55,164 bases of DNA from positions 1-55,164 of IMG/VR virus record IMGVR_UViG_3300046466_000192; one strand, given 5' to 3'. The stretch is from a virus. Lineage: Duplodnaviria; Caudoviricetes. Shown here in pieces: positions 7,715 to 51,998 of this stretch. The stretch's first letter is position 1; each line of letters starts with the position of its first letter. The notes beneath the pieces were generated by a model. That model was not told where the DNA came from and did not search any database. It worked only from the letters and a program-made list of their open reading frames with translations. Made by a program: the position numbers and the translations under genes.

Positions 7715-7910
7715 TATCGGTAAAGATTATAAAAATGAAGCTATGCACTACTCCGTAGGTCAAGAGGTCTACGGAGGGCATACTATTTGTCATATAACAG
7801 AAGAAGACGATAAGTTCAGTATATTTATTAAAAAAAATGACGAGGTTTTACCTTGGAAAGACTTTAATAAAAACATGGCTGTAGCTGTTGAGTATAACTT
7901 AGAGTATTAA
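7692..7910 (+). CDS. Hypothetical protein
   Basis: 72-aa ORF coupled to both neighbours (TAATG junction with next gene). Confidence 0.7.
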   Translation: MKLIRKISIGKDYKNEAMHYSVGQEVYGGHTICHITEEDDKFSIFIKKNDEVLPWKDFNKNMAVAVEYNLEY

Positions 7911-8503
7911 TGAAAAGTATTTTTGACTTTGTTATAGAACCTATTGGATCTAGATATAACAACACTAAAGAGATTGAAGGTAAAAAACTTATACTAAATA
8001 CTCAAATATTTACACATCAAAGCGTTAATAGGCTTGCAAAAGTTAAAAGTGTACCAATAACAGGTGACACTAATATTAAGGTAGGTGATCAAGTTATTGT
8101 TCACCATAACGTTTTTAGAAGGTTTCATGACATAAGAGGTGTTGAAAAAAATAGCAGAAGTTATATAGATGATAAAAATTATCTATGTTCTTTTGATCAA
8201 ATATTTTTATATAAAAACGAAGACGATTGGAAAGCACCTAAAGGCTATTCATTTGTAAAACCTATTGAATCTAATGATATTTTTAATCTTAACAACGAAA
8301 AACCTTATGTAGGAATATTAAAGTTCCTAGATGAAACAATAGATAGTGTTTTTGAAAAAGGTGATTTAGTTGGATTTACGCCTAGTAGCGAATATGAATT
8401 TGTTATAGATGGTGAAAGACTTTATAGAATTAGATCTCAAGCATTAACTATAAAGTATGAATATCAAGGAAACGAAAAAGAATATAATCCAAGCTGGACA
8501 TAA
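7910..8503 (+). CDS. Tandem GroES-like co-chaperonin
   Basis: Two GroES-like halves: FVIEP...IKVGDQVIV and FVKP...FEKGDLVGF...EFVIDGERLYRIR. Confidence 0.65.
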   Translation: MKSIFDFVIEPIGSRYNNTKEIEGKKLILNTQIFTHQSVNRLAKVKSVPITGDTNIKVGDQVIVHHNVFRRFHDIRGVEKNSRSYIDDKNYLCSFDQIFLYKNEDDWKAPKGYSFVKPIESNDIFNLNNEKPYVGILKFLDETIDSVFEKGDLVGFTPSSEYEFVIDGERLYRIRSQALTIKYEYQGNEKEYNPSWT

Positions 8504-27658: not shown

Positions 27659-30600
27659 ATGGAAGAATTAGAATTAATTGTTGACCGAATGATAAAAGCC
27701 GGTGAGCCAGAAGAGGCTATTGCTGGAGTAGTTAAGAGTTACACATCGGGAAAGACATCAGACCCAGTAATAAAGGAGGCGAGTACCGGGTCAAAAGAAG
27801 ATACGGCCTCACAATCGGAAGATACTTTTTCGGAATCACCGTTTTGGAACCACGATGAGACCCAAGAAAAACAAGGTTATTTTGAAGAAACTTTTGGTAA
27901 AGGGCTTTTAACAAACTTAGCAGATGACTTTACAAGAATCATTGGTGGTGGTAATGCTCAGGGAGCTGGTGTAAATGAAGCTTTTGATTTATACAAGTTT
28001 GGTCCTGAAATGACAGACGAACAATATCAAGATTTAATTGACGCGTCTAGAAGATTAGAAGAGTATGGTCAAACAGATGAGATGATATACGCTAGCCAGC
28101 AGTATGAAAAATACAAAAAAGAAGGAGATGGTGGTGTTAAAGCTTGGTTAAAAGCTTATATTACTTTAGACAACCCAACAGCTCTACCTCAATACATGGT
28201 TCAGTCTCTTGTTGGTATGGGTAGGTCTTTAGTAGATTCAGAAGAGGTTGCTGGTTTTGCCGCAGCAGGTGCTGGAACTGGTGCTGGTTTAGGCGCAGGT
28301 GGTGGAGCTGCTGTTGGATCTGTTTTTGCGGGAGTAGGTGCTGTTCCCGGTGCTGCGATTGGTGCTAAACTTGGTGCTGTGTCTGGTTTTATGGGTGGTT
28401 TATCAGGTGCTATGGAAACTTCATTAACAACAATGGATCTAGTTAGAGAGAAAGCAATTGAAAACGGTGTTGATTGGAGTAATTCTACAGACGAGCAAAG
28501 AATACAAGCTATAAAAGACATAACAAACAACAAAGAATCTTTTGATGATTTAAAAAGCAAAGCATTAGCAAGAGGTGTAACCATAGGTGTTATAGATGCC
28601 GCAACTGGTGTTGTTACAATGGGTGCTGCAAAAGGTGTTGGAGGACTTACTACTAAAAGCGTTTTAAGCTCAGCTACTAAGCCTTTATCCGCCACAGCTG
28701 CTGCTATAACTGAATCTGGTGGTGGTATAGCTAGTGAGTATTACGGTCAAAAAGCAGCGGGTCAAGAGTTCAATCTTGAAGAAATAATGATAGAAGGCTT
28801 CGCGGATAAAACATTTACAACCGTAGGCATAGCAAAAGGAGCTTTCACTGGTTCACCCAAGTATTCTATAAACGGTGAAACAATGAATGGTAAAAAGTTT
28901 CACGATGCCATAAAGCTAATGGATGACGAGGCTTATGTATCTGCTGATATAAAAGTAGAAAATTCTCCAGCTGTAGAAAGAGTTGTAAATAACAGGCGTA
29001 GTAATATAAATTTAGATCAAAAGGTAGATAGTAGAATAAATAACAGCGATGATAGATCAACGGTTATAAAGTTGATGAAAGAACAAAAGTCTTTAAATAA
29101 AAATAAAGAAGGTAACGCTAGTAGATTAGCTGAGATACAAGAAGAGATAAATACTATAAATGAAAAATACAAAGGCAACAAGGTAGATGTTACTATAGAA
29201 CAAAGAAAACAAGCTGTAGCAAAAGCTATAGATGATAAATTTGAAGCATCGTTTAATAAAAACTTAAAAGCTGTCAAAGAAGCCGCGGCTAAAAAAGATA
29301 CAACCATAGATGTATTTGAAGATGATGACGCTTACTATAATAAGATAGCGGAAAATCAAAATATTACTCCACAAGAGGCTAAAACAAAAGCAAAAGGTAG
29401 TGACGGTGTTTTTGTAGGTAAAGGTCAGATATTCATAAATAAAGCTCAAGCTAAAAAAGTTGGAGCTGTTGGAGTAGCAAGTCATGAATTTTTACACCCT
29501 GTGTTGAACGCCGCTATAGGCAATAGTAAACAACAGGGTAAAATTGTTTCTGATTTTAAAAAATCATTAACTAGCAAACAAAGAGCTTATGTAGATAAAA
29601 AGCTTAAAGCAAACTACGATCCTTCACAGTGGGACACTGAGTATTTAAATATATTTTCTGATGGTATACAAAATGGTGATATAAACTATGATCAAACGTT
29701 GTTTGAAAAGATAGGTGAATCAATAAAAAGATTTTTTGTAGGTCAAGGTTTTGATAATATATCATTTGATAGTGGTAGAGACGTATACAACTTCTTAAAA
29801 GAGTACAATACTAGTATTAAAAAGGAGGGTAAAGTTAGCAAAAAAGCTATGGATGCTATAACAGCAGCTGAGCAAAAGACTGGTAGAAAAGTTGGCAGCG
29901 TTGAAACCGTTGGTAACATGCAGATGTCAAGAACAGAAGACGTTGCTGAGGTAAATAGAATATACGAGGCAAACGAAAATAAAGATATTGCTGGTTTTGA
30001 AATAGCTGATAAGTATAGAGGTATGGCTGAGTCTACTTTTAAATCACTAAGAGATGGTTCTAACTACACTAACGATCAAAAAGATGTACTAGATCAGAAT
30101 AAAGAAGATATAATAGCTATGATGCTTTATGATAAAATACCTAGTCAAAAAGAAACATCAAAAGCTAGAAACGTAGTTGGTTTAGTTAAAGACTTTGTAA
30201 AAGAAAAGCAAAAATATAGAAACGTTGCGGCTTATATAAATACATTTTTTAAAGAAAGATCAAAAGAAGCTTTTAAATACTATGTTAAGGATGCTGTATT
30301 AGAAGGTATGACAACTGAAGATGGTACTCTTAAATCATCTGTTGCTAAAAAAACATCAAAACAGAGTAGTGTAAACCAGGGTAAAGAAGCTAGGAAGTTA
30401 ACCAGCTTTGACAAATTAAAATCTAAAAAAGAATCTTTTTTAACACCAGCTTTAAAAAAATCTATATTTAACGAAGTATCAAAAAATATAAAACTAGTTG
30501 TAGCTAAAACAGGAACTAACCTACAATCAGCTATTAACTCTATGGAAAGCATAGTTAATAACGAGGTTAGAAAAATAGTAACTAAAGACTTAGGTAATAT

Positions 30601-33600
30601 AAGTAAAAAGAAAGGTGAAGTTGTTATTGACGCTAATTATGAATTACATCTTAGAGAAAACTATGATATAAGTATAGCCGCTTTACCTCTTGATGTTATA
30701 AAAAAGTCTTACGGAAAGCTTTTTAATTTAACTAAAACTGGTAGAGAAAAAACAGCTGTAGGTAAAGGTACTTTTCAAATGACAAAGCCTAGTAAAATAG
30801 ACTGGATAAAACATCACACGGTTGGAGGTTACACTACTTTGTTAGCTAGACAAAAAACATATGCTACAAGTATATCTAATGAGTTTGTTAAAAACGAACT
30901 TATAAAACTAAAAAGTGATCCTGTCTTTATGAACGAATTAGCTGATATTGCTAATTTAAGTCAGTCAGATGTAAACGTGACAGCAATAGAAGCTTCTATA
31001 GATAAACTAATAAATGCTTTAGATAGAAAAAAAGGAGAAGCAAAAGGTTTTGACACAACACTTCAGTTTTCAATAACAGAAAATCAAGCTCAAGATATAA
31101 TACAAAACAAAGAGGCTATATTAGAAGGTATAAGACAACTAGGTGATTCTATTACAAGTAGTACGGTTGGCTTAATGCTTAATAAAACCCTAGACCCAGG
31201 TGTTTGGACGTCTAAAGATGTAGCTAACTACAGAGCGGCAATAACAAAAGCTATAACAAAGTTTGTTAAATATGAAGATCAAAATGTTGATTTAAGTAAA
31301 ATGATACTTGAAGAGGTTGCTACAGATTCAGTGGCAACTAATTTGTCTAGAATATTTAATCTAAATTCATTAGATATAGTTGTAAATGGTATTACTCAAA
31401 AGTTTAAAAACTTTGGTCAAATATTTACACTTAAAAAATACGTTTCAAGACAAAGAAATCATTACTTATCTTATGCCGATGAAACTATAAACAGTGTAGA
31501 TGATGTAATAAATCATTTAAAACACTTTAGAGGCCACATGACTAGTGCTGGTAAAAAATATTTTTTAGTAAAAAGAAACCAAATATTTTCAGGAAACCAA
31601 GATTATATAGATAGTTTAAATAAAATATTAGAGCCTAAAAGTATTCGTATAAATGCAGTAACTAAAGGTAATGGAACAAGTATTTTAAGCATAACAGATT
31701 TAGATGGTAATATACTTGAAATTACTGATTCAGAAGGAAACGCTACTGTTTTAAATGAAAAAGGTGTAAAAGCAGCTATAACAACACCGGCTCAATCTGG
31801 TTATGTAGGCAGTGGTAAAACTAAAAGGGTTAAGAGTAAACAAGCTTTTAAAGATGAACTTGATATTAGAAAAAAATCTGCGGACGAAGCTTGGAATAAT
31901 CTAATAAGTTTATTAACCTATATAAAGAAAAACGGTAGTCCACTTGATTTTGCTATGACCATGATGAGTTTAAAATCTAATATGGCTAGTATGTTAAAGG
32001 CTGCGGCGCCTGTAGAATATTATTTTGTTGGGCCAAATGTTGATACTGTTGTTTACGAGCATATAATACCTACTGAATATATAGTGTTAAAACTAACTCA
32101 GCATTTTTATGGCGCTCCTATAGACTTAAACGCTTTAAAAGATAGATATAAAGTGGCTATAGTTCCAGAAATTATGGATAACAACATAAATATACAAAGA
32201 CAAAAGGTCATGCCTGCTTACTGGAACGAGTCTATGCACGAAACTTTAAGGTATTTTGATGAGTTAACTCTTGGTATGAACAACATGTTTGTTATAGAGT
32301 CTTTAACTGATGGTGTTAAATATGGCGAAAATCATGCTAAAGTGTCTAGCTTGCAGTTTTCTAGAACAAATTTAGAAAAACAAACAATGTTAAATAAAGC
32401 AATACAGATAGCTAGAAATCCTTTTGCACCTGAAAAAGGTATTAGTGTATTTGATTTTGACGACACTATAGCTAGATCAAATAGCAAAGTTAGTTATACT
32501 CTTCCTGATGGAACTCAAGGTAAGATAAATGCTACTGAGTTTGCTTTACAGTCTGCGGATCTTGAAGCTGCTGGTGCTACGTTTGATTTTAGCGAGTTTA
32601 ACAAAGTTGTAGAAGGTAAAAAAGGTCCTTTATTTGACCTTGCTATGAGACGACAAGATAAGTTTACAAGTAAAGACATTTTTATATTAACAGCAAGACC
32701 ACAAGAAGCCGCGATAGCAATACACGCTTTTCTAAAAGGATTAGGTCTTACTATACCTATAGAGAATATAACAGGTTTGGCAGATGGTAGGCCATCAGCT
32801 AAGTCTGATTGGATAATAAGTAAGGCGGCTGAAGGTTATAATAATTTTTATTTTGCTGACGACGCTTATAAAAACGTGAAAGCTGTTCAAGATGTTTTAG
32901 ATGTAATAGATGTAAAAAGAGATGTTCAACAAGCTAAACTACAGTTTTCTAGAACAATGGAAGAACAGTTTAACGACATACTAGAACAAACAAAAGGAGT
33001 TAAGTCTGAAAAAAGATTTTCCGACGCAGCAGCTAGATCAAGAGGTAAAGACATTGGTAAGTGGAAGTTTTTCTTACCACCATCAGCAGAAGACTTTGTA
33101 GGTTTAATATATAGCTTTTTAGGAAAAGGCAAAGTTGGTGAAGCTCAAATGGAGTTTTTTAATAAAACTCTTGTTAAACCATTTGCTAGAGCAATGGACG
33201 AGTTGAATAGAACTAAACAAGCTTTAGCTAATAACTTTAGAGCTCTTAAAAAAGCGTATCCAGAGGCTGCTAAAAAATTATCTAAGATAACACCTTATAA
33301 CAATTTTACCTATAGTACAGCTGTTAGAGTTTACATATGGACTAAAGCAGGTATTACGATACCAGGATTATCTAAAACAGATATAAAAAGATTAAATGAA
33401 ATAGTACAAAACGATAAAGAGCTTAAACAGTTTGCTGATGCTATTGATTTAATGACAAAGGAAAGAGGTTTTCCTGCGCCTGGTGAAAACTGGTTAGTGG
33501 GTAACTTAGCAACAGATATAAAAGATATAACCGATAAAGTAGGTAGAAAAGAGTTTTTAGCAGAGTGGATAGCAAATAAAGAAGTTATATTTAGCAAAGA

Positions 33601-35017
33601 AAATTTAAACAAAATAGAGGCTATATATGGTAGTAATTTTAGAGAAGCACTTGAAGATATGCTCTATCGTATGGAAAATGGCACAAATAGGAACTTTGGT
33701 AAGAACAGATTAGTTAATTCTTTCTCAAATTGGGTGAATAATAGTGTAGGTGCTATAATGTTTTTTAACATGAGATCAGCTATACTTCAAACTATATCTT
33801 TTGTTAACTTTATAAACTGGAGTGACAACAACCCTTTGAATTTTGCTAAAGCTATATTAAACACTAAACAGTTTTCTAAAGATTTCGTAACTTTATTTAA
33901 CTCAGACATGCTTAAGCAAAGAAGATCTGGTATTGGTAGAGATGTAAACGAATCTGAGATAGCCGAGGCAATGAGCGGTGCTAGAAACAAACCTCAAGCT
34001 ATATTAAATTATTTGCTCAGAATAGGTTTTACACCAACGCAAATAGCGGATAGCTTTGCAATATCTATGGGTGGAGCTGCTTTTTATAGAAACAGAATAA
34101 ATACATACCTAAAACAAGGTATGACACAGGAGCAAGCTTTAGATCAAGCTTTTAAAGACTTTCAAGAAACTACTGAAGTTTCTCAGCAGTCTTCAAGACC
34201 TGATATGATTAGCCAGCAGCAAGCTGGTCCACTAGGTAGATTAATATTAGCTTTTCAGAATACACCTATGCAGTACACTAGATTAATAAAGAAGGCTTTT
34301 CTTGATTTAATGGCTGGTAGAGGCGATGCTAAAACTAATATGTCTAAAATTTTATACTACGGAGCTGTGCAAAACTTTATATTTGCAGCAATGCAATCAG
34401 CTTTATTTGCAATGCTATTTGACGACGATGAAGATGAAGATAAGTATGGTAAAAAGAAAACTAGAATAGCAAACACAATGACAGATTCTATACTTAGAGG
34501 TTCTGGTATATTTGGAGCTGGTATTTCAACTATGAAAAATATGATATTAAAATTCATGGAACAAGAAGAAAAAGGTTGGAATGCTGATCACGCTTACACG
34601 GTGATAGAAGCGGCTAACTTATCACCACCTATTGGTTCTAAACTAAGAAAATTATATTCTGGTATACAAACATATAAATTTAATAAAGACGTAATATCAC
34701 ATAAAGGTTTTAGCTTAGACAATCCTATATTGCAAACAGGTGGTAATGTGGTTTCAGCTATAACAAATATACCTTTAGATAGAGTTGTTAACAAATACAA
34801 TAATTTAAGAGGAGTTGCTAATAGTAAAAACGAGAGCTGGCAAAGACTAGCCATGCTGCTAGGTTGGAACTCTTGGGATGTTGACGCTGAAATAGATCCT
34901 GAACTTGAAGGTTTAAAAAAGAGATTAAAAAAGAGAAAAAAGTTAAAGAAAAAAATATCAGCTTCTGAAAAAGCTAGAAGAGACGCTATAAGAAAAAAAT
35001 ACTACCAAAATAACTAA
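27659..35017 (+). CDS. Giant multidomain ejection (polyvalent) protein
   Basis: 2452 aa: G/A-rich hydrophobic N-region, zincin HEFLH (aa 609), EHIIP motif, HAD domain DFDDT/TAR/K/DD, LPD38-like helical C-terminus (AFQNTPMQY). Confidence 0.8.
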   Translation: MEELELIVDRMIKAGEPEEAIAGVVKSYTSGKTSDPVIKEASTGSKEDTASQSEDTFSESPFWNHDETQEKQGYFEETFGKGLLTNLADDFTRIIGGGNAQGAGVNEAFDLYKFGPEMTDEQYQDLIDASRRLEEYGQTDEMIYASQQYEKYKKEGDGGVKAWLKAYITLDNPTALPQYMVQSLVGMGRSLVDSEEVAGFAAAGAGTGAGLGAGGGAAVGSVFAGVGAVPGAAIGAKLGAVSGFMGGLSGAMETSLTTMDLVREKAIENGVDWSNSTDEQRIQAIKDITNNKESFDDLKSKALARGVTIGVIDAATGVVTMGAAKGVGGLTTKSVLSSATKPLSATAAAITESGGGIASEYYGQKAAGQEFNLEEIMIEGFADKTFTTVGIAKGAFTGSPKYSINGETMNGKKFHDAIKLMDDEAYVSADIKVENSPAVERVVNNRRSNINLDQKVDSRINNSDDRSTVIKLMKEQKSLNKNKEGNASRLAEIQEEINTINEKYKGNKVDVTIEQRKQAVAKAIDDKFEASFNKNLKAVKEAAAKKDTTIDVFEDDDAYYNKIAENQNITPQEAKTKAKGSDGVFVGKGQIFINKAQAKKVGAVGVASHEFLHPVLNAAIGNSKQQGKIVSDFKKSLTSKQRAYVDKKLKANYDPSQWDTEYLNIFSDGIQNGDINYDQTLFEKIGESIKRFFVGQGFDNISFDSGRDVYNFLKEYNTSIKKEGKVSKKAMDAITAAEQKTGRKVGSVETVGNMQMSRTEDVAEVNRIYEANENKDIAGFEIADKYRGMAESTFKSLRDGSNYTNDQKDVLDQNKEDIIAMMLYDKIPSQKETSKARNVVGLVKDFVKEKQKYRNVAAYINTFFKERSKEAFKYYVKDAVLEGMTTEDGTLKSSVAKKTSKQSSVNQGKEARKLTSFDKLKSKKESFLTPALKKSIFNEVSKNIKLVVAKTGTNLQSAINSMESIVNNEVRKIVTKDLGNISKKKGEVVIDANYELHLRENYDISIAALPLDVIKKSYGKLFNLTKTGREKTAVGKGTFQMTKPSKIDWIKHHTVGGYTTLLARQKTYATSISNEFVKNELIKLKSDPVFMNELADIANLSQSDVNVTAIEASIDKLINALDRKKGEAKGFDTTLQFSITENQAQDIIQNKEAILEGIRQLGDSITSSTVGLMLNKTLDPGVWTSKDVANYRAAITKAITKFVKYEDQNVDLSKMILEEVATDSVATNLSRIFNLNSLDIVVNGITQKFKNFGQIFTLKKYVSRQRNHYLSYADETINSVDDVINHLKHFRGHMTSAGKKYFLVKRNQIFSGNQDYIDSLNKILEPKSIRINAVTKGNGTSILSITDLDGNILEITDSEGNATVLNEKGVKAAITTPAQSGYVGSGKTKRVKSKQAFKDELDIRKKSADEAWNNLISLLTYIKKNGSPLDFAMTMMSLKSNMASMLKAAAPVEYYFVGPNVDTVVYEHIIPTEYIVLKLTQHFYGAPIDLNALKDRYKVAIVPEIMDNNINIQRQKVMPAYWNESMHETLRYFDELTLGMNNMFVIESLTDGVKYGENHAKVSSLQFSRTNLEKQTMLNKAIQIARNPFAPEKGISVFDFDDTIARSNSKVSYTLPDGTQGKINATEFALQSADLEAAGATFDFSEFNKVVEGKKGPLFDLAMRRQDKFTSKDIFILTARPQEAAIAIHAFLKGLGLTIPIENITGLADGRPSAKSDWIISKAAEGYNNFYFADDAYKNVKAVQDVLDVIDVKRDVQQAKLQFSRTMEEQFNDILEQTKGVKSEKRFSDAAARSRGKDIGKWKFFLPPSAEDFVGLIYSFLGKGKVGEAQMEFFNKTLVKPFARAMDELNRTKQALANNFRALKKAYPEAAKKLSKITPYNNFTYSTAVRVYIWTKAGITIPGLSKTDIKRLNEIVQNDKELKQFADAIDLMTKERGFPAPGENWLVGNLATDIKDITDKVGRKEFLAEWIANKEVIFSKENLNKIEAIYGSNFREALEDMLYRMENGTNRNFGKNRLVNSFSNWVNNSVGAIMFFNMRSAILQTISFVNFINWSDNNPLNFAKAILNTKQFSKDFVTLFNSDMLKQRRSGIGRDVNESEIAEAMSGARNKPQAILNYLLRIGFTPTQIADSFAISMGGAAFYRNRINTYLKQGMTQEQALDQAFKDFQETTEVSQQSSRPDMISQQQAGPLGRLILAFQNTPMQYTRLIKKAFLDLMAGRGDAKTNMSKILYYGAVQNFIFAAMQSALFAMLFDDDEDEDKYGKKKTRIANTMTDSILRGSGIFGAGISTMKNMILKFMEQEEKGWNADHAYTVIEAANLSPPIGSKLRKLYSGIQTYKFNKDVISHKGFSLDNPILQTGGNVVSAITNIPLDRVVNKYNNLRGVANSKNESWQRLAMLLGWNSWDVDAEIDPELEGLKKRLKKRKKLKKKISASEKARRDAIRKKYYQNN
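32354..32957 (+). repeat. 16-nt direct repeats flanking HAD domain
   Basis: CAGTTTTCTAGAACAA at 32354-32369 and 32942-32957, both in frame (QFSRT). Confidence 0.8.
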
Positions 35018-36257: not shown

Positions 36258-36545
36258 ATGGCAGCACCAGAAATAGGAGAGAACACAAAGGTAACTCTAG
36301 ATTTAAAAACAATAGGATTAATAATAGGTGGAGTAGTTTCACTAGCTAGTATGTATTTTATAATGCAAGCAGATATTGCTCTTGCTATGGAAATGCCTAA
36401 ACCTGTTATTGATAGAGTAGAATATGATTTAAAAGACGAGTTGATACGTCAAACAATTATGGACACTCAAGATGATGTAGAGGAGATAAAAGAGACTATA
36501 GATAAAATAGATCAAAGACTTTACGAAATACAAAAAAATAGATAA
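36258..36545 (+). CDS. Single-TM coiled-coil protein (holin/XhlA- or i-spanin-like)
   Basis: Likely start ATG 36258 after A/T-rich leader; TM IGLIIGGVVSLASMYFIM followed by coiled coil. Confidence 0.6.
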   Translation: MAAPEIGENTKVTLDLKTIGLIIGGVVSLASMYFIMQADIALAMEMPKPVIDRVEYDLKDELIRQTIMDTQDDVEEIKETIDKIDQRLYEIQKNR

Positions 36546-36958
36546 TGAAATACTTAATTTTACTTTTTACGGTACCACTGCTTTCAATTAGTCAAGTAGA
36601 CGTGCCAGAGGAATACTGGATAAATGATTCTAATTTTGAAGAGTCTATAAGCAAAAAATCAGCTTTTGGTGACGAAGATAACAAACCTGTTTTAGTAGAG
36701 TTTTGGGCAGAGTTTAATAAAGCAAATTGTTTTTCTGATTGGGAAAAGGTTGAAAATGTTACGTATTACAGAGTAAATATAGCTGAGGCACCTGAGGCAA
36801 AAAAGAAATACAGAGTACGTATGGCACCTACTCTTATAATATTTAAAAACGGTATTAAAGAAAAAGTTTTTAAAGCAGGTTTAGATCTTGTGTTGCCTGC
36901 AGATTTAAAAGAAATACAAGATAGTATAGACGAAATAAATACAGCAAATAAATTTTAA
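36545..36958 (+). CDS. Secreted thioredoxin-fold protein lacking CxxC
   Basis: Signal peptide; KPVLVEFWAEFN in place of FWAxWCxxC; cis-Pro loop MAPTLIIFKNG. Confidence 0.7.
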   Translation: MKYLILLFTVPLLSISQVDVPEEYWINDSNFEESISKKSAFGDEDNKPVLVEFWAEFNKANCFSDWEKVENVTYYRVNIAEAPEAKKKYRVRMAPTLIIFKNGIKEKVFKAGLDLVLPADLKEIQDSIDEINTANKF

Positions 36959-37195: not shown

Positions 37196-37549
37196 ATGAA
37201 AAAAATTATAGCTTTATTACTTATCCCGTATTTTTCAATGGCTCAACTAGATATATACGGTTGGGAAGTTCAAGAAGATAAAGCTATGCATTATTTAGCT
37301 GGTGCTGCTATAACTAGTATATCTCACGATTTAATTTTTGAGCATACTAAAAGTAAAGAAAAAGCTATAATGTATTCTATCGCTACTACTTTAGCTGTAG
37401 CGACTTTTAAAGAAGTTTTTATAGATAGAGGGCATGGTGATGGTCAAGATATAGCGGCTAGTATGTATGGCGCAATAACTGTAGGCGTCGCGATAGAGCT
37501 TGATGGTTTATTTAGAAAAAAAAGAAATAAAATAAAATGGAAAAAATAA
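37196..37549 (+). CDS. YfiM/VanZ-like membrane protein
   Basis: Signal peptide, DKxxH...KE..D...D.AA...G motif with hydrophobic helices. Confidence 0.55.
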   Translation: MKKIIALLLIPYFSMAQLDIYGWEVQEDKAMHYLAGAAITSISHDLIFEHTKSKEKAIMYSIATTLAVATFKEVFIDRGHGDGQDIAASMYGAITVGVAIELDGLFRKKRNKIKWKK

Positions 37550-37998
37550 GCAAACACGTAAGTTACCGTGAAGGTGTGTATAGCAGAACAGCGGAGAGAC
37601 TTGGTTTGAAAAATGATCCTACTGATGAGCATCTAGCTAATATGAAGCTTATTGCAGAAAAAGTGTTTGAACCTCTTAGAGTACACGTAGGTGGTCCTAT
37701 AAAGATTAATTCCTTTTATCGTGGTCCAGAATTAAACAAAGCTGTCGGTGGATCTTCAAAATCACAACATTGTCACGGTCAAGCAATTGATATTGATGAT
37801 ACTTTTGGTCATGCAACTAATGCTGAAATGTATAAATACATAAAAGAAAACTTAAACTTTGATCAGATGATATGGGAATTTGGTACAGATGAGAATCCTA
37901 ATTGGGTTCACGTGAGCTACGTTAGCGAAGACAAAAATAGAAACAGATGCTTAAAAGCTTATAAAGAAAATAACAAAACTAAATACATGATAATATGA
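37537..37998 (+). CDS. Endolysin, peptidase M15 family
   Basis: SFYR...N..VGG..SQHCHGQAIDI...WVHVSY with Zn ligands H/D/H. Confidence 0.85.
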   Translation: MEKISKHVSYREGVYSRTAERLGLKNDPTDEHLANMKLIAEKVFEPLRVHVGGPIKINSFYRGPELNKAVGGSSKSQHCHGQAIDIDDTFGHATNAEMYKYIKENLNFDQMIWEFGTDENPNWVHVSYVSEDKNRNRCLKAYKENNKTKYMII

Positions 37999-51909: not shown

Positions 51910-51924
51910 AATTTATAATTTTTG

Positions 51925-51998
51925 GTGCGCAGGGTGGATTCGAACCACCGACCTCTAGCTTATGAGGCTAGCGAGCTGGCCAACTGCTCTACCGCGCA
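51925..51998 (-). tRNA. tRNA with CAT anticodon (Met/fMet or Ile2)
   Basis: Cloverleaf: TGCGCGG/CTGCGCA acceptor, GAGC/GCTC D-stem, CTAGC-CTCATAA-GCTAG anticodon arm, GGTGG-TTCGAAT-CCACC T arm. Confidence 0.9.

Follow-up and report, generated by a model that had tools for sequence, protein, structure and literature searches.

The genome of a marine Bacteroidota-type podophage, represented by the virus record IMGVR_UViG_3300046466_000192 (55,164 bases, analysed over its whole length and hereafter called the window), encodes a giant protein of 2452 residues in which the boundaries between successive modules carry four copies of a short motif, [LM]Q[FM]S[RI]T. Versions of this motif recur at equivalent junctions across a large family of homologues, almost all from marine metagenomes, and on balance the motifs are probably sites of proteolytic cleavage. 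The further reading, that the virion delivers a polyvalent protein whose processing code is defined and which is cut by its own embedded gluzincin metallopeptidase, is plausible from the sequences, at a little under an even chance. Zincin self-processing of polyvalent proteins has already been proposed in excerpted text of Iyer et al. 2017 (PMC5512222); the junction motif is the new part, the finding is more general than the single-sequence view from which this work started, and processing is a reasonable interpretation of it.

The original prediction, made from this one protein, had read in it four copies of the motif, an intact zincin motif (HEFLH) with a downstream glutamate in DTEYL (residues 659-663), and an EHIIP motif, and each of these lies exactly as described (Table 1). 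The motif glutamines (residues 755, 1136, 1566 and 1762) are all C-terminal of HEFLH, and the six reading frames of the window hold no further copy of the hexamer. From composition, 3.0e-4 matches to the degenerate hexamer would be expected; 20,000 shuffles gave one match in 5 cases and two or more in none, a chance estimate limited by the pattern having been defined after the data had been seen. The tripeptide QFS occurs four times in the giant protein against 0.33 expected (p 3.6e-4), and an unbiased scan ranked it only fifth among enriched short patterns. Because QFS is merely fifth in rank and the hexamer was chosen post hoc, the single sequence fails to prove the motif; it is to be regarded as more than chance because of its conservation and recurrence throughout the family. 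A fifth QFS (33869-33877, residues 2071-2073, in the context TKQFSKDF) lies within the conserved C-terminal domain, where all 43 homologues aligned keep Q2071; this copy has no hydrophobic residue at position -1 and is probably an element of the fold and not a junction.

Homologues of the giant protein numbered 2043 among 7999 scored candidates, and when the protease domain was searched by itself, without a profile, 712 representatives at 50% clustering were obtained. The motif is present zero to six times per protein at equivalent junctions in the 120 homologues listed, and 243 distinct sites yield the logo [ILVM]-Q-[F/M]-S-[K/R]-[T/N/S]; generalised over the family it reads hydrophobic-x-[F/M/L]-S-[K/R]-[T/N/S], with x being glutamine in the window protein. 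In an alignment of 43 diverse homologues, Ser757, Ser1138 and Ser1764 stand out from variable linkers with a conservation of 90% or more, and junction 4 is the best conserved of all, with the consensus QAK-hydrophobic-x-F-S-K. Among 155 typed homologues, the tripeptide of the last junction recurs upstream a mean of 1.79 times, against 0.32 expected. The starts and ends of BLASTP alignments with 201 homologues pile up at residues 725-775, 1125-1150, 1550-1600 and 1750-1775, so that the domain borders originally suspected at the motifs are now visible as breakpoints in homology: 59 alignments end at 1125-1150, where coverage falls from 88 to 33 of the 201 homologues, and 61 start at 1550-1600. 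The motifs therefore mark places of cargo exchange. It had also been anticipated that the motif would be conserved in homologues with different cargo, and it does recur around exchanged modules: an extra module of ~190 residues in homologue P0070 has a motif copy on either side, and four further homologues carry paired motifs exactly 11 residues apart (P0035 at 1555/1566, P0064 at 1696/1707, P0087 at 1702/1713 and P0040 at 1578/1589). Were such pairs cleavage sites, cutting would free a small spacer peptide. Tandem copies at this spacing and motif copies flanking the inserts are typical polyprotein grammar. No other ORF (open reading frame) of at least 90 residues in the structural module of the window carries the motif. 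Shorter homologues were considered as natural split-gene forms; most proved to be contig-end cuts or internal-methionine calls, and they are uninformative on splits.

One must consider whether the repeats have any function of their own, or instead reflect chance, common descent or DNA-level recombination joints between shuffled modules. Besides the low rank of QFS within the single protein, this possibility drew on codon usage: the glutamine of all five QFS occurrences in the window is encoded by CAG, whereas CAA makes up 72 of the 100 glutamine codons of the giant ORF, which at first suggested a nucleotide signal. The excess of CAG is, however, a general codon context before phenylalanine. 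Across 85 genes, CAG encodes glutamine before phenylalanine in 51% of cases without a following serine and 59% with one, against 14% elsewhere, and lysine before phenylalanine has the same codon bias. Serine codons at motif sites come from both unrelated families (89 TCN and 82 AGY), which places selection on the peptide and not on the DNA; the general context before phenylalanine and the mixed serine codons together rule out a nucleotide-level signal at QFS sites. The motif is, moreover, retained between proteins of 16-65% identity and at junctions with unalignable flanks, and with the low compositional expectation of the hexamer this leaves repeats without function very improbable. As a separate observation on codon-pair context, the AT-rich giant genes in the window and in loci L004-L087 use G-ending codons for glutamine or lysine before phenylalanine in 51-62% of cases, against 14-19% elsewhere.

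Domain parsing with AlphaFold2 was expected to place the motifs in linkers, and did so. Two models, each built from a 43-row alignment, cover residues 540-1400 (mean predicted local distance difference test score, pLDDT, 71.5) and 1401-2452 (68.8). All four motifs lie in coil, with residues 755-756 of the first assigned as strand, and three of the four are in segments with pLDDT below 50. Segments of such low confidence are limited to 121 of the 861 residues in the first model and 167 of the 1052 in the second (14-16%).

Beyond recurring, the sites of one protein tend to vary together. Among 167 full-length proteins the last junction is of type QFS in 84, KFS in 24, DFS in 7, NFS in 5 and EFS in 4, with the rarer types QLS, QMS and QTS at 4-5 each. 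Upstream sites of the form xFS[KRQ] follow the same type: proteins with a Q-type last junction have 164 upstream sites with Q and 1 with K, those with a K-type last junction 23 with K and 1 with Q, and those with a D-type last junction 10 with D and 0 with Q. In one homologue (L036) MFS occurs five times and is the top enriched tripeptide of that protein. Over 53 representatives obtained by clustering at 50% identity, 0.47 of the site pairs within a protein share the same x, compared with 0.21 after shuffling (maximum 0.33 in 2000 shuffles). A FastTree phylogeny built from the C-terminal domain shows 22 changes of anchor type, from which no more than 3-14 independent contrasts could be made. 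Agreement of x among the sites of one protein points to one common reader for all of them. Concerted change is seen in the alignments; its statistical weight after correction for relatedness is modest.

The candidate reader lies directly upstream of the first junction, as motif 1 starts ~10 residues past the end of a predicted gluzincin-type domain. In 58 diverse protease segments of 16-65% identity, H609, E610, H613 and E661 are the sole invariant columns (HEFLH being residues 609-613), so that the zincin motif first noticed in one protein is intact across the family; the first three of these residues are also invariant in 43 full-length homologues, and of 191 full-length homologues, 190 carry HExxH. 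E661, 48 residues beyond H613 and on a predicted helix, may be the third zinc ligand of a gluzincin signature, and AlphaFold2 models the domain as a small sheet with helices after it. Q- and D-type proteins have a basic helix next to HExxH on its C-terminal side, whereas in K-type proteins this helix is neutral or acidic (position 640 is basic in 0.74 of Q-type, 1.0 of D-type and 0.14 of K-type proteins), a trend in charge that loosely ties the protease to the motif type and is suggestive only. A complex prediction of the zincin domain and a zinc ion with a 50-residue linker around site 1762 scored 0.00 without controls and is evidence neither way.

The explanation proposed here is that the giant polyvalent protein would be a string of independent modules, packaged and then ejected with the DNA. 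In order, these would be an N-terminal membrane-active region with a gluzincin protease (81 kDa), a module opening with a sigma-region-2-like domain (43 kDa), a variable module (48 kDa), a Pnkp-like HAD phosphatase (22 kDa) and a conserved helical C-terminal domain (79 kDa). The short disordered linkers with the motif would be the proteolytic processing sites, and the embedded zincin would begin with a cut in cis at the C-terminal edge of its own domain (site 755) before turning to the other sites. The scissile bond would be that between Q and F, ahead of the conserved hydrophobic residue; a cut before phenylalanine would fit the conservation, which is strongest at F and S and weaker at x, with a hydrophobic residue preceding x, since gluzincins usually prefer a hydrophobic residue at P1'. 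In its fullest form the explanation would have the embedded gluzincin read hydrophobic-x|F-S-K/R (the bar marking the cut) in every inter-module linker, with the code x (Q, K, D, N and others) co-evolving with the protease and the released cargo (a sigma-like factor, a Pnkp-type end-healing phosphatase and, in some relatives, a kinase) acting before phage gene expression; this complete chain of events is tentative. The original prediction placed cutting after injection; the present results bear neither on that timing nor on cutting in the capsid.

It is worth noting that several observations weigh against cleavage by the embedded zincin. Firstly, the zincin fold is unconfirmed by Pfam, NCBIfam or PDB sequence searches, the best match of a PDB profile search being only snapalysin (E 0.31, over the HExxH region), and it is absent from the VIA-align structural matches listed, which are filled by sigma-like and other helical parts. 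Secondly, a mutual-information scan of zincin columns against motif type singled out no column clearly, phylogeny being a confounder, and tree-corrected independent-pairs sign tests were non-significant (3-14 pairs, median p 0.22-0.69), so that the raw variant counts could rest on few lineages. Thirdly, a de novo search for repeated motifs in three unrelated giant proteins that share the genome slot or the class of the window protein (those of elemo phage, MW202828 and phage 24B) found none. Other long disordered loops of the window protein (e.g. residues 881-908) carry no motif, so that being a linker does not equate to bearing the motif, a pattern that also fits specific sites. Finally, the 2806-residue homologue in locus L080 (4289-12706) retains three KFSK sites without HExxH and without any H-x3-H; no zincin-like sequence was found in the 22.6-kb locus and no Pfam peptidase in the first 1503 residues of the protein. 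The conserved C-terminal domain is present in the L080 protein, and its N-terminal half is unrelated.

The L080 protein is the clearest encouragement for the idea that the motifs are cleaved by a different protease, be it another phage protein or a host enzyme, with the zincin degrading cell wall or a host protein instead. Lineage-specific variants of x could track a host enzyme equally well, and in passages of a preprint on phi24B the authors propose a peptidoglycan role for the metallopeptidase of its giant virion protein (10.64898/2026.04.10.717836). Set against this, the scanned ORFs of the window yielded no recognisable prohead protease or other protease family, though several ORFs are unassigned; confinement of the motif to one protein of the structural module is unlike the substrate range of prohead proteases; and HExxH is kept in nearly all full-length homologues. 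Cleavage by another enzyme is thus an unlikely account.

A more substantial challenge comes from the structural models, in which a helix begins right after each of the four motifs. In the sequence, S-x-x-E fits a capping box at two of the four, and part of the motif (S-x-T/x-E) could be a cap for that helix. The motif may never be cut, and instead be a conserved linear linker element, either a hinge with a helix N-cap or a docking motif for one partner (portal or tail channel, capsid interior, chaperone) in packaging or threading of so long a chain. Concerted variation requires only a common reader and not a protease, and the 3500-residue virion RNA polymerase of N4 is packaged unprocessed despite a zincin domain, according to excerpted text of Iyer et al. 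2017 (PMC5512222). A helix cap, however, leaves the conserved hydrophobic-x-F and the shared x unexplained, and neither tandem copies 11 residues apart nor motifs on both sides of inserted modules sit well with an uncut linker; the same is true of a zincin, catalytically intact by sequence, conserved beside the first site. An uncut motif is a possibility to be taken seriously, with well under an even chance.

Table 1. Positions of the giant gene, its predicted modules and junction motifs, and neighbouring genes in the window.
Feature	Position	Strand	Residues	Remarks
Giant ORF	27659..35017	+	2452 aa	~273 kDa; candidate virion-delivered polyvalent protein
Gly/Ala-rich hydrophobic segment	28289..28381	+	211-241	second segment at residues 306-324; Kyte-Doolittle 19-residue window at least 1.4
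Predicted gluzincin-type metallopeptidase domain	29276..29893	+	540-745	HEFLH 29483-29497; Glu661 29639-29641
Junction motif 1, MQMSRT	29918..29935	+	754-759	coil between helices; block pLDDT ~62
Sigma-factor region-2-like helical domain	29939..30304	+	761-882	start of module B (residues 760-1134), after junction 1
Junction motif 2, LQFSIT	31061..31078	+	1135-1140	coil; pLDDT <50 (model residues 589-602)
Module C	31079..32350	+	1141-1564	variable N-part and better conserved alpha/beta domain with EHIIP (residue 1467)
Junction motif 3, LQFSRT	32351..32368	+	1565-1570	inter-helix coil; pLDDT <50 (model residues 167-170)
HAD-superfamily phosphatase domain (module D)	32429..32929	+	1591-1757	DxDxT 32450-32467; ILTAR 32684-32698; Lys in SAKSDW 32795-32812; DD in FADDA 32852-32866
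Junction motif 4, LQFSRT	32939..32956	+	1761-1766	coil; pLDDT <50 (model residues 357-365)
Conserved C-terminal helical domain	32957..35014	+	1767-2452	hydrophobic helix at residues 2236-2254
GroES-like co-chaperonin gene	7910-8503			directly 5' of terminase
Thioredoxin	36545-36958			beyond giant gene
Endolysin	37537-37998			beyond giant gene
tRNA-Met (CAT)	51924-51998	-		amid early or replication genes

The order of domains originally proposed (membrane-type N-region with protease, sigma-like, EHIIP domain, HAD phosphatase, LPD38-like C-terminus) stands for the hydrophobic N-region and for the phosphatase, and for the sigma-like domain after the first site by fold only. The N-terminal region has a weak match to DUF6861 (residues 202-329, E 7.2e-5), under the Pfam cut-off. 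For module B, sigma factors make up 28 of the 50 VIA-align matches listed, the best with Z 7.6 (root-mean-square deviation, rmsd, 3.9 Å over 93 aligned residues), a score within the VIA-align range common for helical domains. None of 15 module-B sequences matched the sigma Pfam families at E <= 1, and a PDB profile search of module B found no sigma factor; the module is therefore filed as sigma-2-like in fold only and not as a sigma factor. Its start is a lead that may represent either a virion-delivered sigma-like factor or merely a common helical arrangement. Module C combines an N-terminal part (residues ~1151-1400) common to only ~25 of 201 homologues with an alpha/beta domain modelled at pLDDT 84-93 over residues 1401-1510.

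Module D is clearly a HAD phosphatase by structure: the 3'-phosphatase of T4 Pnkp (5uj0_B) aligns with Z 12.1 and rmsd 2.3 Å over 122 residues, followed by further T4 Pnkp and Pnkp1 phosphatase domains (4xrp_A, Z 11.7; 1ltq_A, Z 11.4), and nearly all of the 50 VIA-align matches listed are HAD enzymes. HAD motif I, FDFDDT (residues 1598-1603), is on a predicted strand and kept in the family consensus, while Pfam HAD models gave no match to the module. In two homologues, P0105 (residues 2204-2578) and P0109 (residues 1551-1929), the DxDxT of this module is directly followed, within the module, by a P-loop kinase, and Pfam AAA_33/Zeta_toxin was found in 3 of 19 diverse members scanned, P0105 included. 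The Pnkp-like HAD fold, with a kinase in some homologues, suggests that module D may be an end-healing enzyme of the Pnkp kind that the virion delivers. It shares with T4 Pnkp a capless HAD phosphatase fold with DxDxT; identity is, in contrast, ~12%, and the kinase of the homologues follows HAD motif I instead of lying N-terminal to the phosphatase.

The C-terminal ~690 residues are the most conserved part of the protein, present in 195-199 of 201 homologues and rich in invariant polar residues. Language-model neighbours of this domain are LPD39 (score 0.95, 28% of cluster members) and LPD38 (0.93, 88%), and Foldseek against BFVD gave 47 matches at E <= 0.001, several of them labelled PolyVal, ART-PolyVal, LPD or MuF-C, those labelled PolyVal, LPD or MuF-C having E values from 1e-5 to 5e-4. 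This resemblance to the C-terminal parts of polyvalent-labelled proteins is in line with the LPD38-like assignment made at the outset; Pfam gave no LPD38 match, and indeed no LPD match to the giant protein at E up to 10. As no Pfam polyvalent model matches, the link to polyvalent proteins rests on fold and on language-model neighbours.

The window has a G+C content of 34% and an estimated completeness of 85% (CheckV). Its structural block comprises a tail-fibre-like gene, a GroES-like gene, the large terminase, portal, a capsid-like protein and several PHROG 'virion structural' proteins; the giant ORF stands at the end of this block, 3' of the terminase, portal, capsid-like and virion-structural genes, and is followed by thioredoxin and then endolysin. 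Judged from this position, the giant protein probably enters the capsid and leaves it together with the DNA. By terminase similarity, the closest cultured relatives are podophages of Flavobacterium, Cellulophaga, Tenacibaculum and Maribacter. In cultured or named terminase relatives the same genome slot holds bigger genes, of 3859 residues with two HEFGH motifs in MW202828.1 (L002:741-12320) and of 3694 residues with one HEIFH in NC_055854.1 (L003:18852-29936). These syntenic giants cannot be aligned with the window ORF and lack any repeated junction motif; across terminase relatives the slot is kept and its content replaced. Searches of the giant protein were otherwise sparing in matches: tblastn with the whole protein and its N- and C-terminal parts gave none in a cultured-phage collection; Pfam and NCBIfam gave nothing above cut-off on five segments; PDB sequence and profile searches with the whole family, the HAD module, the zincin and module B gave nothing significant; and Foldseek against the PDB gave no match at E <= 0.001 for either AlphaFold2 model. 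The sole PHROGs match was phrog_32588, whose function is unassigned.

Known systems offer several points of comparison. In MARTX toxins, an internal cysteine protease frees effector modules by cutting inter-domain linkers after delivery. Like the window protein as read here, they are single chains of great length that are delivered with a protease inside them and are cut (proven there, predicted here) in unstructured inter-module linkers; they differ in using a cysteine protease with a eukaryotic cofactor, in being bacterial toxins for eukaryotic cells and in their unrelated sequence. In T4, phiKZ and SPN3US, a head protease cuts short consensus sites in packaged or ejected proteins and also trims capsid and scaffold. 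That protease is a separate one, whereas here none was recognised in the scanned ORFs and one protein bears the motif. Closer in kind are the polyvalent proteins of Iyer et al. 2017 (PMC5512222), for which excerpted text proposes processing by a zincin-like peptidase before packaging, in the head or after injection, and gives P1 DdrB as an example that is processed and N4 virion RNA polymerase as one that is not. The window protein has in common with them a giant multi-domain chain, a place in the virion module, an embedded HExxH candidate peptidase, variable effectors and a C-terminus resembling the LPD38/LPD39 kind, and its giant chain joins many unrelated domains, in five modules, within a phage structural module, as in the polyvalent proteins of that paper; the excerpts name no cleavage-site motif, whereas here there is a specific junction motif with lineage variants. 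The 2811-residue virion protein gp47 of phi24B, with LPD5, LPD1, LPD38 and MuF-C metallopeptidase domains, is likewise a podophage virion-associated giant polyvalent protein and proposed ejection protein, according to passages of the preprint (10.64898/2026.04.10.717836). It has no significant sequence similarity to the window protein, and the homologous gene in HM208303 lacks a repeated junction motif. A published cleavage motif for polyvalent proteins was not found in open-access papers (main texts) or on bioRxiv.

Polyvalent proteins are thought to bring into the cell the tools of a phage's first minutes there. How one giant chain of this kind yields several working proteins has so far been a matter of proposal only, and a motif that can be read from sequence makes the proposal directly testable. 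The motif also serves as a rule for dividing such giants into modules in metagenomes; applied here, it brings out candidate effectors missed by sequence searches, namely the sigma-2-like domain and the Pnkp-like phosphatase. Should the explanation hold in its fullest form, phage polyvalent proteins would have their first defined processing grammar.

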